A stretch of 38,771 bases of DNA, from the sequence record PQ374146.1, one strand, 5' to 3'. The notes under the pieces are model-generated. The model was not told the origin of the DNA and ran no database searches. It saw only the letters and a program-made list of their open reading frames with translations. The DNA comes from Acinetobacter phage TPWB-05. Below are positions 2,515 to 25,134 of the stretch, in pieces. Every line of letters starts with the position of its first letter. Within the stretch, counting starts at the first letter, position 1. A program made the translations under genes and the position numbers.

Positions 2515-3069
2515 TTACTTCTTTAGAAATAGTGCTCGCTCATCAGCGCGACGACGAACTAGACCTTTTAACACTTTACCACCACCTTTGTTCCAAACAA
2601 GGAACTGATCCGCTGCGCCAGCATAGTCTTTCGCATTCAACTTATTCAAAAGAGTTGATTTGCTAAAAGCTGTTTCACCGATGTTGTAAGTGAGGCTGAC
2701 CAATGCATCAAACTGGTTTTGAGAGAGTGGAACTTTAACCAGGTTGTTCACAGATGATTCAAATCGCTTAAGATCATGTGCAAAGTAAGTCTTAGCTTGG
2801 GCTAAAGTGCATGTATCGCCCTTCTTCACCTTTTGTCCATTTGGATAGACCGTGGTGCCGGTTCCAATGGTCCATACACCCACCCCGTCGTCATAGGCTT
2901 GAAGTTTAGTGTCTTCAAAGCTTGATATAAGGTCAATTCCTACTTTGCTTGTAGTCATTCCAGATGGCTTTAGATCATCAACCACAGCATTCAACTTATC
3001 GACCTGTGCCTGTGTTAGTTTGCCACCAGCAAGCTCACGGGCTGCATCGAAAAATGGTTTAACGCTCAT
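2515..3069 (-). CDS. Endolysin, GH24 T4-type lysozyme/muramidase.
   Basis: Motif LISSFEDTKLQAYDDGVGVWTIGTGTT (E/D/T catalytic triad). The likely true start is the ATG at 3069, preceded by an AGGAGG SD, with an ATGA overlap with the holin stop. The ORF track extends it to 3102. Confidence 0.9.
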   Translation of the reverse strand: MSVKPFFDAARELAGGKLTQAQVDKLNAVVDDLKPSGMTTSKVGIDLISSFEDTKLQAYDDGVGVWTIGTGTTVYPNGQKVKKGDTCTLAQAKTYFAHDLKRFESSVNNLVKVPLSQNQFDALVSLTYNIGETAFSKSTLLNKLNAKDYAGAADQFLVWNKGGGKVLKGLVRRRADERALFLKK

Positions 3070-3401
3070 GGTACCTTCCCTCCTGAAATGATTGATTTCC
3101 AAATCAAAGCAAAGGTATCAATAGCCTTGCCGCCAAGATGCCCAGCCATACCTGCCAATACACCAATCAGAACAAGTGGCATGTTCCAGTAGATGCAAAG
3201 TAAAACTGTAATAATCCCGGCAAACGCCGAAATAATTAACTCACCAATAAGACGCATAAAAATCTCCTTAAGTGGCTTGGGCTCCTTTGACTGATTTAAT
3301 CTACGGATAAATGAAACAAGTCCACCAAACATTGCCAATGCAATCATCCAACCGTACGTTATTAGCCCCGTTACTATTTCTCGAAATGTTTCTTTATCCA
3401 T
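3066..3401 (-). CDS. Putative holin, a 111-aa protein with 3 predicted TM helices immediately upstream of the endolysin.
   Basis: Three hydrophobic segments and position before the lysin. AGAGG SD 6 nt upstream of the start. Confidence 0.6.
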   Translation of the reverse strand: MDKETFREIVTGLITYGWMIALAMFGGLVSFIRRLNQSKEPKPLKEIFMRLIGELIISAFAGIITVLLCIYWNMPLVLIGVLAGMAGHLGGKAIDTFALIWKSIISGGKVP

Positions 3402-3424
3402 GGATACCTCTAATTTTTGGCAAT

Positions 3425-3461
3425 AAAAAAGCCCTAGCTCATTTAAAGCTAAGGCTTGTGT
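3425..3461 (-). terminator. Rho-independent terminator-like hairpin just upstream of the lysis cassette: 9-bp stem GCCCTAGCT/AGCTAAGGC with one mismatch, followed on the minus strand by a U6 tract.
   Basis: Stem 3431-3439 and 3447-3455. A6 at 3425-3430 on the plus strand equals a U-run on the minus transcript. It may also act weakly on the plus strand. Confidence 0.5.
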
Positions 3462-3496
3462 TGTTTGGTTGGGTGAATAAACTTTACTTTTTAAAT

Positions 3497-22405: not shown

Positions 22406-22416
22406 AGGTTAGCCCC

Positions 22417-23028
22417 TTATTGATTGAATTTCGCATAATGTTTTTCAACTTGGGCATAAACACGCTTGTGGTCAGGATGACTTGAATCCATGTATGCCTC
22501 TGATGCAATTAATTCTGAAACGTTTGACACACCGCTTTGTTGTGTGTTTTGAGGTGGCATATCTTCCTGTAGGGCCTTGCCGTAGTGCGCTGCCAAGCGG
22601 ATGCCGAACGTTGGAGAATCAACATCTTTTGGATCTAGTCCGGCAGCCTGTACCGCTTGATGTGCAAAGCGAAGGTTGGCGTCATAATCACCGCCCCAAT
22701 CTGCTTGAAGCTGCTCTAATTGCACTGCTGTGTGCTGCTCATAGGCTTGCAGGACAACGCCCAACTGTTCATTAGAAATACCAGCGGCATGCGCATTTTC
22801 TAAAAATGCTTTATTGCCTTCATCAGCTTTGAATGAATCGAAATCTAAGCCTTCAATGTCTACCTTGTAGGCATCTGCTGATTCGGGTAAATCGGTTTTC
22901 GCTTCCTGAGTTTCAGTAGCCTGCTCTGTTGTTTGAGAAGTTTCGGTGCCAGTAGTTGTGGCCTCTGTTGTTGCTTCTGTTTGCTCAGTAGTTTGTGTTT
23001 CTTCTGCTGTAGTTGTTTGCTCAGTCAT
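22417..23028 (-). CDS. Scaffolding protein.
   Basis: Highly acidic with a T/E/Q-rich N-terminus. Lies between the portal and capsid genes. Confidence 0.6.
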   Translation of the reverse strand: MTEQTTTAEETQTTEQTEATTEATTTGTETSQTTEQATETQEAKTDLPESADAYKVDIEGLDFDSFKADEGNKAFLENAHAAGISNEQLGVVLQAYEQHTAVQLEQLQADWGGDYDANLRFAHQAVQAAGLDPKDVDSPTFGIRLAAHYGKALQEDMPPQNTQQSGVSNVSELIASEAYMDSSHPDHKRVYAQVEKHYAKFNQ

Positions 23029-23494
23029 CGTTTGATTCCTCTACAAAAGCTGGATCATTTGCTTTATTGATTTGATTGATAATGTGGTTAACAACGTGCT
23101 GTTGCCCTAACTTGTAATTTGTTTCTCGATCGGTACTTGAGAAGGCAGGACGGCAATACAACTGGGCTAAATGCTCCAGGATGCGCTGCCCATTAATGTC
23201 TAAATCGAATACAACTCGATATGTTTCTGGAGTTGCTGGACGTAGTTGACGCTGCCGAACAAACCCGCCCTTTTCCTCTGCCTCACCTTCTTTTTGGCGC
23301 AAGGCTTCTTCCAGTAGTTCCACCTGATTGTTCAGCTGATTAATTTCTTCTTTAGCTTTTGAAAGATTGGCTGCAGCTCCCTGATGAATACGATTTTCAT
23401 CCCAGTACATGTCATGCCATTTTTCATGCTTAACCTTGTGATAAGCAGTAGAAATCAGAAAAACTAATGCCAATAAAAACCCTAAATAAATCAC
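23021..23494 (-). CDS. Hypothetical protein with an N-terminal TM helix and a coiled coil (157 aa). GTG start overlaps the portal stop.
   Basis: ORF and composition only. Confidence 0.4.
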   Translation of the reverse strand: MIYLGFLLALVFLISTAYHKVKHEKWHDMYWDENRIHQGAAANLSKAKEEINQLNNQVELLEEALRQKEGEAEEKGGFVRQRQLRPATPETYRVVFDLDINGQRILEHLAQLYCRPAFSSTDRETNYKLGQQHVVNHIINQINKANDPAFVEESNDD

Positions 23495-25134
23495 TGCATT
23501 ACCTCACTTGTTAATTGAGACTCAAGCCCTTTTCCCACGGCATTAGCCAATGGTTGAGCCAAGCTCTGTGCTTGTTCTTGTTCGACTGCTTGTTGTTGTG
23601 CTTGCTGACGCTGCTGGCGAATTGCATCTATCTGCTCTTGAGTACGGAGAATTGCTGTAGGTACGCCTAATCCCATACCAGTAACTTGAGCTACGGCATC
23701 CATATCAACGTTGTCGAGAATTGAGGGGTCGATGTTTGCTACTTCTGCAAGGCTGGCAATGAATCGCTCGATTGAAGTAACTTCCTCAAGCTGCTGAGAA
23801 CGTGCCAAAGCAGAAATAAACTTGAATGAAAGATTCCGGCCCTGCATTTCTTCAGGCGCTTCACCAATGACACCGGCGCGGTATGCCAGTCCAAAGGTGC
23901 GCTCAAGTAATGGCGTGAGTAATTCAGCCTGCCAACGGCCATACAAAGGCCCCAATTGCTGACGAATCAGATCGACACGGACATGCACCTCAGTAGCTGT
24001 CATTGCTGGGCCATCTTGTGGCTGTAGCTGATCGGCCATCATCTTTTTACGGATGCCGCTTTGAATTGCAGCCAGAAAATCCACTCCAACCTCATACCCG
24101 CGACCATCATCAATACGCTTCATTGAATCAACACTATTGGCAGTGATGATCTTGCCGCCACCGAGACGAACGGTTCTTGGGTTCAAAGTGCCATCATCTT
24201 CTGCAATCCACATGCCGAGTGTTGAAATCTCAGCACTTCGCAATGTGTCACGCATTAATTTGTTTGCTGACTTGGCATCTGGTAAAGGAATAGAGACCTG
24301 ACCAATGCCGTAAACTGAGCCGGGCAACTTACGGAAGCGCGGCACAACAAATGGGAATTCGTCATAGCCTGATTCTTTCAGGATATGTTTTTCTTCAACT
24401 TCAATATGATATGAAGCAAAAGGTTTGTTTTTGGCTAATGTGAGTCGGCCTTCGGTAGGGCGTACATTACGAGGCTGGCAAATAGTTAAAACCTTGATCT
24501 TGCAATCAGGCTTGTCCTTGTAAGTGTTGCGCACCTTCTCACTTACATTCTGTTCACCATACTCTGTGACCAGCGCAGCGGCAGTCATATCGAATTCACG
24601 ATACAGCGTGTCAATCTTTTGATCCTGACGTGTCGAAGCTAAATAACATTGGCCAATGTCATAGGTCTGGAATACATAGCCACCACCAGCCTTACGATCA
24701 ATATCTGCATACATCACGCCCCAGCCAGCAACTACACAATCCAGTACGAGATCAAAGATTTCACTGTCATAGTTCGCGCCATGGATGTTGCGCCAGATGA
24801 ATTGACACACAACATCAAGCCACTGTTCACCATCAGTCAGTTCAGCTGGATCATCAACACCATCAGGTACCGCCTTAAACCAAAGCGCGTTAGCAGGCGT
24901 GGTACCAGAGATAATGCTCGACACAAGTAATTGAGTTGCTTCTGCAAGAGTTGAATCAAGTAGCTCAGCACGTTGGGTTTTACGAGTATCAGTTACATCA
25001 TCCCCGGCGAAAGATTGTTGACGTTCAGGTGCTGCATACTTATACGCATCAGTCCACTGCGGCTCATAACGTACACGTTCAGCTTTTAACTCGCTCAGTC
25101 GTTTACATAGCTTTGCTACTTGCTCCTTCTCCAT
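23491..25134 (-). CDS. Portal (head-tail connector) protein, T7 gp8-like.
   Basis: A 547-aa protein with an N-terminal RL.ELKAER..YEP.W pattern resembling gp8 and a Q-rich C-terminus. Lies upstream of the scaffold and capsid. Confidence 0.75.
   Translation of the reverse strand: MEKEQVAKLCKRLSELKAERVRYEPQWTDAYKYAAPERQQSFAGDDVTDTRKTQRAELLDSTLAEATQLLVSSIISGTTPANALWFKAVPDGVDDPAELTDGEQWLDVVCQFIWRNIHGANYDSEIFDLVLDCVVAGWGVMYADIDRKAGGGYVFQTYDIGQCYLASTRQDQKIDTLYREFDMTAAALVTEYGEQNVSEKVRNTYKDKPDCKIKVLTICQPRNVRPTEGRLTLAKNKPFASYHIEVEEKHILKESGYDEFPFVVPRFRKLPGSVYGIGQVSIPLPDAKSANKLMRDTLRSAEISTLGMWIAEDDGTLNPRTVRLGGGKIITANSVDSMKRIDDGRGYEVGVDFLAAIQSGIRKKMMADQLQPQDGPAMTATEVHVRVDLIRQQLGPLYGRWQAELLTPLLERTFGLAYRAGVIGEAPEEMQGRNLSFKFISALARSQQLEEVTSIERFIASLAEVANIDPSILDNVDMDAVAQVTGMGLGVPTAILRTQEQIDAIRQQRQQAQQQAVEQEQAQSLAQPLANAVGKGLESQLTSEVMQ

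Follow-up and report, generated by a model that had tools for sequence, protein, structure and literature searches.

Is a virion module that is laid out like that of T7, but lies in a temperate genome without a phage RNA polymerase (RNAP), the product of a rare and recent exchange, and by what means would its late genes be controlled? The question is raised by sequence record PQ374146.1, a stretch of 38,771 nucleotides analysed at its full length (hereafter the window), in which positions 2515-25689 of the minus strand hold one collinear virion, packaging and lysis operon of ~23 kb. An earlier note had taken this operon, beside the lifestyle genes of the same genome, for an uncommon mosaic of an autographivirus-type virion and a lambdoid lifestyle. 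We consider it highly probable, jointly with the rest of the explanation set out below, that the window holds an apparently intact 37.8-kb prophage of the temperate podophage group to which Alcaligenes phage Piluca belongs. Judged by its database relatives, the phage type is old, common and already described, and the element adds a further member to it. As a phage type it adds little, the group being large and already sampled; the sole unexpected feature is a set of cassettes built around a 13-nt element that is repeated ahead of late genes.

Gene order and ancestry of the virion module

Read along the minus strand, the operon begins with two small genes, the portal, a Bbp19-like gene, a putative scaffold and the major capsid protein (MCP), followed by a terminator and a 154-amino-acid (aa) orphan open reading frame (ORFan). 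It continues through the adaptor, the nozzle, a GNAT acetyltransferase, internal proteins of 132, 685 and 949 aa, a 123-aa ORFan and a 1055-aa protein, and ends with an 89-aa open reading frame (ORF), the small and large terminases (TerS and TerL), the tail fibre, an acetyltransferase gene on the opposite strand, the holin and the endolysin. This is the order 8-9-10-Tphi-11-12-13-14-15-16 of T7, except that the counterparts of 18 and 19 stand ahead of that of 17, and it confirms the collinearity with T7 that had been claimed for the virion, packaging and lysis genes. The parts are as follows.

25136..25689, minus strand: two small first late genes (76 and 107 aa); phrog_9015 and phrog_11993, with Piluca homologues
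23491..25134, minus strand: portal of the T7 gp8 family; PF12236, 344 bits, 1.7e-102
23021-23494, minus strand: Bbp19-like protein; PF25181/phrog_3742, listed for the scaffold and Bbp19 pair
22417-23028, minus strand: putative scaffold, its role taken from position
21506..22405, minus strand: MCP; PF19821, 193.8 bits; HK97 fold
21471..21499, minus strand: post-capsid hairpin resembling an intrinsic terminator, directly after the capsid stop; 12-bp stem, T-run, dG -19.5, z -3.6
20237..20800, minus strand: adaptor (tubular A, or gp11, analogue); phrog_394; PDB 8ck1_E 1e-11, LME-1 9efk_T 9e-5
18162..20255, minus strand: tail nozzle (T7 gp12, or tubular B, family); PF25675, 51.7 bits against a gathering score of 27
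17707..18159, minus strand: GNAT acetyltransferase in the gp13 position; PF00583
15258..17704, minus strand: internal virion proteins of 685 aa (C-terminus like epsilon15 gp15) and 132 aa (phrog_418)
12412..15261, minus strand: 949-aa internal protein with SLT transglycosylase and ddrB-like ParB domains; PF01464, PF18763 (145 bits), phrog_11561
8720..11887, minus strand: 1055-aa internal or ejection protein like epsilon15 gp17; BLASTP to gp17 5e-48 over the full length; phrog_684
8082..8390, minus strand: putative small terminase, assigned by position and annotation only; 80% identity to Piluca TerS
6400..8082, minus strand: large terminase, like T7 gp19; BLASTP to gp19 4e-14
4210..6390, minus strand: tail fibre or spike; PHROG tail-fibre families
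3066-3401, minus strand: LydA-type holin; PF16083 (the lysis pair also matches phrog_785 and phrog_7)
2515-3102, minus strand: GH24 endolysin; PF00959

The statement that no RNAP gene is present stood up to search. T7 RNAP gave no tblastn match at E<=10 either in the window or in the ~20 kb fetched around each related locus, none of the window ORFs scanned has an RNA-polymerase Pfam domain, and all ORFs of at least 400 aa have other assignments (integrase, fibre, TerL, portal, nozzle and ejection proteins). A polymerase fold that escapes such searches could, formally, still lie in one of the large internal proteins. There being no phage polymerase, we infer that the ~23-kb late operon is transcribed by that of the host.

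Homology to T7 differs from protein to protein: gp8 is reached through PF12236, gp12 through PF25675 and gp19 directly, gp11 only by way of epsilon15 and LME-1, and gp10 and gp17 not at all. When gp10, gp11, gp17 and gp19 were compared pairwise with their counterparts, only TerL aligned; it is gp19-like, as proposed, and its only PDB matches, 8dgc and 4bij, are terminases of the T7 group. The portal matches 8ck0 (2e-56), LME-1 (1e-13) and T7 (7e-9), and the nozzle matches 8ck1_A (8e-50), 9efk_M (1e-10) and T7 gp12 (0.017), as well as epsilon15 gp12 (27% identity, 1.6e-38); 8CK0 and 8CK1 are probably from the marine phage Carin-1. The adaptor, which had been called gp11-like, is linked to that family through gp11 of epsilon15 (3e-13) and has no direct similarity to T7 gp11. 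Profile and structure searches place portal, nozzle and TerL within T7-family models, and adaptor, capsid and fibre have no direct match to T7.

The capsid departs from the supposed layout of T7 genes 8, 9, 10 and Tphi, which holds for the order, the PF12236 portal and the post-capsid hairpin but not for the MCP, a PF19821 protein that is not gp10-like. In sequence the MCP has no match to T7 gp10, epsilon15 gp7 or BPP-1, and a 104-sequence profile found one solved full-length relative, the LME-1 MCP (9eg4, 7.7e-8). An AlphaFold2 model from the same 104-sequence alignment (pLDDT 84) has 9eg4 as its best Foldseek match (3.2e-15, TM 0.65), after which the list is a flat run of HK97 folds from podophages, siphophages and encapsulins; a previous model from 36 sequences at least 77% identical reached pLDDT 47.5 and was discarded. 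Nor is the fibre N-terminus of T7 type, as had been supposed. Its ~200 residues form a clade-wide particle-binding domain (52% identity to Piluca) with no BLASTP match to T7 gp17 and no Pfam match, and a tblastn search of more than 50,000 phage records returned clade members and two marine phages only, with no Autographiviridae among them; the one further match outside the clade is the N-terminus of the epsilon15 tailspike gp20 (23%, 7e-4).

By these comparisons the module belongs to a broad supergroup of short-tailed phages that takes in T7, epsilon15 and LME-1, and is not a close relative of T7. Nor does it appear to be a recent graft from an autographivirus, because only TerL is directly similar to T7, among the classical model phages it is epsilon15 that comes closest in the tail and ejection proteins, and the capsid is nearest to that of LME-1. 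In the explanation that we consider highly probable, phages of this group, the element among them, combine three parts: a lambda-style lifestyle module (CI/Cro, an O-like initiator, a DnaC-like loader, RusA and a RecE-type exonuclease), a virion module, and a T7-type TerL, of which the virion module is an ancient short-tail type of the T7, epsilon15, LME-1 and Carin-1 supergroup with T7-like gene order. That a lambdoid phage recently took its virion and packaging module from a true T7 relative and then lost the RNA polymerase would also account for the T7-like order, for portal and nozzle falling within T7-family Pfam models and for the direct match of TerL to gp19. Such an origin is very unlikely, however: no virion protein besides TerL has detectable pairwise similarity to T7, the capsid is of a different Pfam family with LME-1 as its nearest solved relative, and the same module recurs in prophages of dozens of species, often beside homologues of early genes (a helix-turn-helix (HTH) protein, CI-like) and with no T7 RNAP match in the ~20 kb fetched around it. 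Epsilon15, BPP-1, Piluca and LME-1 show the combination to be old. Where Autographiviridae have genes on one strand, strict lysis, a T7-type DNA polymerase and a primase-helicase, the window has divergent transcription from the CI/Cro region, an integrase, CI, and replication genes of the O-like and DnaC-like kinds.

The breadth of the family is plain from its capsid. Searches with the MCP returned 1,231-2,678 cluster representatives each, from Acinetobacter, Salmonella, Klebsiella, Serratia, Yersinia, Ralstonia, Cupriavidus and other hosts, and in a set of one genome per species 57 loci from Gamma- and Betaproteobacteria encode a PF19821-type capsid. Collinear homologues of the portal are present in 48 of the 57, of the scaffold in 52, of the Bbp19-like protein in 24, of the adaptor and of the nozzle in 54 each, and of the GNAT protein in 47. 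The description of the mosaic as uncommon therefore fails, since the same module is found in the published phage Piluca and in prophages of dozens of species, and epsilon15 and LME-1 are similar. A T7-like virion without an RNAP in a temperate genome is better regarded as a common and ancient arrangement than as a rare mosaic.

Two internal features of the module may be mentioned here. The GNAT gene that follows the nozzle and precedes the internal virion proteins is kept family-wide, and epsilon15 gp13 is likewise GNAT-like. The SLT-domain internal virion protein that the earlier note had pointed out is the 949-aa protein (67% identity to Piluca gp047), in which the ddrB-like ParB-superfamily domain occupies residues 527-655; we take this mix of domains to resemble the multi-domain 'polyvalent' proteins injected by phages and conjugative elements.

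A 13-nt element repeated ahead of late genes

The 13-mer CACCCAACAAACC was revealed by the leader of the late operon, which the window shares in conserved form with Piluca and with a prophage of A. bereziniae despite different upstream genes. Allowing up to one mismatch, it has five copies in the window where 0.04 would be expected, every one of them on the coding strand, starting at 25754, 20860, 18229, 11948 and 8450 and each 44-58 nt before a start codon; the genes behind them are the first late gene, the adaptor, GNAT, the 1055-aa protein and TerS. Four copies begin at the stop codon of the upstream gene or at most ~20 nt past it. Each copy belongs to a cassette:

25687..25765, minus strand: cassette 1, the late-operon leader; -10-like TGGTATTAAT at 25765-25756, 13-mer at 25754-25742, hairpin at 25719-25695, T-run, ATG at 25689
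20798..20860, minus strand: cassette 2; 13-mer CACCCAACAAACA at 20860-20848, hairpin at 20841-20805, T-run, ATG at 20800
18157..18229, minus strand: cassette 3; variant 13-mer CACACAACAAACC at 18229-18217, inside the nozzle gene at its 3' end, with 58 nt to the GNAT ATG; structured, no T-run
11885..11948, minus strand: cassette 4; 13-mer TACCCAACAAACC at 11948-11936, hairpin at 11923-11894, T-run, ATG at 11887
8388..8450, minus strand: cassette 5; 13-mer CACCCACCAAACC at 8450-8438, hairpin, T-run, TerS ATG at 8390

Cassette 2 also bears on the adaptor start: a TTG at 20932, which overlaps the upstream ORF, was rejected in favour of ATG 20800 on the position of this cassette and on the homology, which begins at about residue 46.

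The hairpin lies 9-22 nt past the 13-mer and has a 3' arm resembling a Shine-Dalgarno (SD) sequence (GGGGC, GAGGG or TGGGC), followed by a T-run of 5-7 and immediately by the ATG, so that the SD-like GGGG or GAGGG stands 6-8 nt ahead of the start codon. Among 120 distinct cassettes the distance from 13-mer to ATG is mostly 44-53 nt. In four orthologous classes of hairpin, 3-5 pairs each are changed on both sides, G-U pairs are frequent and 95-98% of cells are paired, which argues that the hairpins act as RNA. The 13-mer itself is largely unpaired in minimum-energy folds, its first bases pairing weakly in two of the five cassettes.

A scan of IMG/VR for the full cassette, used in place of a 14-mer-only scan that was dominated by chance matches, found 77 loci, 73 of them with virion genes of this phage family, and the cassettes precede TerS (29), the first late gene (19) and the adaptor (15). 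The 13-mer also occurs in Piluca (locus L001, at 7, 19459 and 24200) and in loci L005-L016, L048 and L057. No Rfam family is present in the window, and the 13-mer has no occurrence in the searchable literature. Its distribution points to an element specific to this phage clade.

We hypothesize, with somewhat less than even confidence, that the 13-mer would signal antitermination or anti-attenuation in a manner analogous to ops, nut or qut. A phage factor would take part in its reading, the candidate being an HTH protein of the early region; antitermination would let transcription cross the cassette terminators after induction, and the cassettes would also insulate inserted cargo genes. More generally, and more tentatively still, we propose that the cassettes form an undescribed late-gene control system, in which a phage factor (the same protein being the candidate) enables either passage of the terminators or use of phage-specific promoters. 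The candidate is encoded ahead of the late operon:

29110..29517, minus strand: 135-aa HTH protein, candidate late-gene regulator; weak Sigma70_r4_2 match; phrog_17493

Its Sigma70_r4_2 match scores 22 bits, below the Pfam threshold of 25.7. It is the sole regulator-like early gene kept (54-74% identity) in those motif-bearing loci whose DNA reaches that far, and homologues of 29-39% identity are found in enterobacterial and betaproteobacterial loci, usually just upstream of the late operon.

Several points weigh against an antitermination signal of this kind. A processive antiterminator needs one loading site, not four or five. The 13-mer of cassette 3 lies inside a coding region and its cassette has no T-run, which better suits translational or RNA-processing control. 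The window yielded no recognisable Q-, N- or NusG/RfaH-like protein, and the 135-aa HTH protein has no informative NCBIfam or PDB match. Finally, no equivalent repeated motif was seen in enterobacterial or betaproteobacterial relatives or in phage vB_EcoM_APEC, so that the 13-mer signal is not general to the family.

Two other accounts have to be set beside it, and we regard each as unlikely. If the 13-mers were phage-specific late promoters, read by a host RNAP that a phage activator or sigma-like protein redirects or by an unrecognised phage RNAP, transcripts would begin in or just before the hairpins. The motif is indeed directional, intergenic and repeated before gene blocks, with its distance from the ATG nearly fixed; transcripts starting inside the hairpin would leave its SD-like 3' arm free, copies at the head of the late operon have a -10-like hexamer (TAAAAT, ATTAAT or GATAAT) before them, and a conserved protein with an HTH like that of sigma region 4 is at hand. 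Yet there is no -10-like element at a fixed distance downstream and no conserved element upstream of the internal copies, no RNAP gene was found, the HTH match is under threshold, and any start upstream of the hairpin meets a terminator at once. Control of translation or RNA processing, to which we give a similarly low chance, would have the SD sequestered in the hairpin and the single-stranded, C/A-rich 13-mer serving as a ribosome standby site or enhancer, as the binding site of a Com-like RNA-binding activator, or as a cleavage site. This would fit the SD-like GGGG or GAGGG in the 3' arm and the largely unpaired 13-mer, the fact that the distance from 13-mer to ATG is constrained while that from 13-mer to hairpin is not, and the copy in the nozzle gene, which keeps motif, structured region and ATG without a T-run. 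A standby site would not require a strictly conserved 13-mer, however, no RNA-binding protein was identified, and all the features of an intrinsic terminator (a GC-rich stem base and a U-tract, often with a matching A-tract upstream) are present in four of the five hairpins.

Three further readings of the 13-mer were rejected: a pac site, in view of the several copies per genome; a sigma-70 promoter, there being no fixed -10; and an artefact of conserved coding sequence, since four copies out of five are intergenic with different upstream genes. If an antitermination signal is what the 13-mers provide, or more broadly if the cassettes control the late genes, they offer a testable handle on how ~23 kb of late genes are timed and dosed with the host polymerase only.

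Borders, lifestyle genes and cargo

The CI/Cro, O/DnaC replication and integrase genes reported for this genome were all found. The element is bounded by an exact 17-nt direct repeat, the cores of its attachment (att) sites, and the features outside the virion operon on which its lifestyle would depend are these:

742..758, plus strand: attL core ATGCTTCTAATGATCGA, a 17-nt exact repeat of 38513-38529
930..2156, plus strand: tyrosine integrase, adjoining attL; Arm-DNA-bind_3, Phage_int_M and Phage_integrase domains
30080..31668, minus strand: O-like initiator and DnaC-like helicase loader; phrog_678 3.5e-24, phrog_50 1e-60; IstB/DnaA ATPase domain
32008..33373, both strands: immunity region, with Cro-like gene, CI and TGCGATA half-sites
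32008-32214, minus strand: Cro-like gene, divergent from CI
32329-33015, plus strand: CI; HTH and S24 peptidase
38513..38529, plus strand: attR core; the start codon of a host gene for a class-I glutamine amidotransferase overlaps it

The ORF on the attR side (38513-38749) matches PF00117 (GATase, 2.4e-19) as the N-terminus of a class-I glutamine amidotransferase, and the left host flank holds the C-terminus of an M24 (PepP-like) peptidase (ORF 110-454). The integration target is the first 17 nt of the amidotransferase gene (TrpG/PabA-like), and at attR the phage-borne core restores its start codon. The host ORF ends after 78 codons at a TGA (38747-38749) close to the end of the window (38747-38771), and its PF00117 alignment covers positions 1-78 of 190; its shortness may reflect a frameshift, a pseudogene or an artefact of the window edge. 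A 20-nt repeat, GTGAGTAACATTGTGAGTAA, lies inside both ends (879-898 and 38441-38460), and its copies may be a pair of arm-type sites of the integrase. The chromosome that carries the prophage is most probably that of an Acinetobacter, because the best capsid protein matches are Acinetobacter proteins (A. bereziniae, 95%) and the G+C of the window is ~0.41.

The immunity region is of a familiar kind. The heptamer TGCGATA has five copies in the window, four of them in two regulatory regions of cI: those at 32254 and 32277 in the cI-cro gap, and those at 33319 and 33363 just past the cI terminator and before the early-left operon, two sets that we read as OR- and OL-like operators. The early operon of the minus strand encodes a ribbon-helix-helix protein, the O-like initiator, the DnaC-like loader, RusA and the 135-aa HTH protein, whose gene is followed by ~10 small variable ORFs; that of the plus strand encodes a RecE-type exonuclease and a DNA methyltransferase and reads towards int. 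With divergent CI and Cro, operators flanking cI, early-left recombination genes directed towards int, and O with a helicase loader, 'lambdoid' is a fair description of the lifestyle module, although no window ORF has a Pfam, PHROG or NCBIfam match to the N or Q antiterminators.

Could the element be a prophage that is defective or cryptic, or a helper-dependent satellite? The absence of a spanin (none was found in the window) and of a recognisable Q or N gene would be in keeping with such a state. It is nevertheless highly improbable, since the ORFs for virion, packaging, lysis, replication, immunity and integration are intact between intact att repeats, and Piluca, with the same gene set and no spanin, forms plaques. 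Against the reading as an intact Acinetobacter prophage it should be said that the host is named solely from those protein matches and G+C.

Three genes in the module stand apart as apparent cargo:

20862..21385, minus strand: moron-like cassette; TGGTATAAT at 21385-21377, 154-aa ORFan at 21347-20883, hairpin with T5 at 20884-20862
11964..12411, minus strand: 123-aa cargo ORF (11964-12335) without homologues; TGGTATAAT at 12411-12403
3555..4226, plus strand: sugar acetyltransferase of the NeuD/PglB/VioB family; TIGR03570, 165.9 bits (cut-off 160.8); Hexapep and PglD_N

The extended -10 promoter TGGTATAAT at 21377-21385, which the earlier note had seen as a driver of the module, is present but probably does other work. 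It has only two sites in the window (2.2 expected), both intergenic on the operon strand, and each precedes an ORF without a homologue in Piluca or the 57 loci. As promoter, ORFan and terminator make up the classic layout of a moron, and relatives have no homologue of the ORF, the site at 21385-21377 most probably drives cargo expressed from the prophage and not the virion module. Both ORFans look like morons at module junctions. The 154-aa one has no Pfam, PHROG or NCBIfam match; it is flanked by terminator-like hairpins and occupies the slot that the head-decoration gene has in LME-1. The post-capsid hairpin has an equivalent, likewise with a T-run, between the MCP and adaptor genes of enterobacterial relatives, and we infer by analogy a family trait with a Tphi-like role; as an attenuator it would probably raise the ratio of head to tail proteins, as Tphi does in T7. 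The sugar acetyltransferase has a homologue in none of the related loci. It is a candidate for lysogenic conversion by acetylation of surface sugars, because it shares slot and orientation with the O-antigen conversion genes of epsilon15.

Relatives and comparable systems

Megablast matched Alcaligenes phage Piluca (MZ326864) and records of Acinetobacter prophages. Piluca was announced as a predicted temperate podophage with CI, Cro and integrase that forms plaques, with tail proteins resembling those of T7 and epsilon15 and a relationship to A. baumannii prophages (Wan et al. 2022, PMC9022569). The comparison with temperate podophages suggested by the earlier note bears out the kinship: Piluca has the same gene order throughout, with 52-83% protein identity over the virion module (portal 82%, MCP 78%, adaptor 83%, nozzle 81%, GNAT 78%, SLT protein 67%, TerS 80%, TerL 74%, endolysin 74%) and 78% for the DnaC-like loader, has neither RNAP nor spanin, and has the same 13-mer cassettes ahead of its first late gene, adaptor and TerS. 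It differs in the C-terminus of the fibre, in the integrase (33% identity) and in most small early genes, and is without the cargo ORFs 20883-21347 and 11964-12335 and the sugar acetyltransferase. At the nucleotide level megablast aligns no more than 24% of the 22.6-kb module, at ~75% identity. Practice of the ICTV, the international committee for virus taxonomy, is to draw a genus at ~70% and a species at 95% whole-genome nucleotide identity over the full length, and by that measure the two phages fall in neither the same genus nor the same species; the taxonomy line of the Piluca record gives neither an ICTV family nor an ICTV genus. Alcaligenes faecalis was the isolation host of Piluca, whose 41% G+C, Acinetobacter-like nucleotide relatives and shared 13-mer cassettes suggest that it came from Acinetobacter recently or that its host range is wider, the G+C of A. 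faecalis being much higher. Elsewhere in the family, two Symbiopectobacterium genomes (loci L019-L023) have this prophage type in two or three copies each, and in one of these loci (L023) the 14-mer GTCGCTTGGCTATA occurs six times.

Head and tail of the module have different nearest relatives. The head genes are nearest to the prophage of A. bereziniae CIP 70.12 (portal 88%, scaffold 82%, MCP 93%), and the tail and ejection genes to Piluca (53-83%; adaptor 83%, nozzle 81%, GNAT 78%, against 56-66% for those in A. bereziniae). Going by these identities, the recombination break is the MCP-adaptor junction (21347-21505), the site of the terminator, the moron and cassette 2; the cassettes mark junctions of cargo insertion and of head and tail blocks with different ancestry.

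Epsilon15 (Salmonella; Uetakevirus) is likewise a temperate podophage without an RNAP, with an integrase and a terminator after its head genes, and its order is alike: portal, MCP, gp11 adaptor, gp12 nozzle, gp13 GNAT, gp14 and the ejection proteins gp15-17. Homology extends to portal, adaptor, nozzle, the three ejection proteins, the fibre N-terminus and the integrase, at only 23-29% identity; portal, adaptor, nozzle, GNAT and gp15-17 match in the same order with E-values from 1e-9 to 5e-48. The conversion genes of epsilon15 lie on the opposite strand between tailspike and holin, as does the acetyltransferase of the window. Epsilon15 differs in a P22/Sf6-type terminase at the start of its module, a head protease, for which the window has no gene, and another MCP; neither the MCP nor the TerL of the window has a tblastn match to it. 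Its SLT domain is in gp15, not in the second large protein, and it has no 13-mer cassettes.

LME-1 is a mobile element of Legionella that yields particles when genetically activated, with a T7-like virion and T7 gene order (PMC12407071), and the same 2025 paper reports that its genes have no sequence similarity to T7 (PMC12407071; PDB 9EFK/9EG4). Portal, adaptor, nozzle and MCP of the window all match it, the first three matching 8CK0/8CK1 more strongly; the MCP is only 19% identical, and between MCP and adaptor LME-1 has its head-decoration gene where the window has the unrelated ORFan. With T7 itself the window shares the order portal, scaffold, capsid, terminator, adaptor, nozzle, internal proteins and terminase, Pfam families for portal, nozzle and TerL, and an SLT domain in an internal protein. 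It differs in having no RNAP or T7-type replication genes, in being temperate, in carrying genes on both strands and in placing the fibre after the terminase.

For the cassettes the closest parallel is lambda PR'-qut-tR' with Q: like it, cassette 1 has a -10-like element, a short element and a terminator ~23 nt on, at the head of a late operon of ~23 kb. The likeness to lambda qut or to RfaH and ops is one of analogy only, as the 13-mer is unrelated in sequence to qut, nut boxA and ops and has several copies per operon. If the proposed role is true, the cassettes would be the functional counterpart, in a phage without a polymerase of its own, of the repeated promoters of T7.

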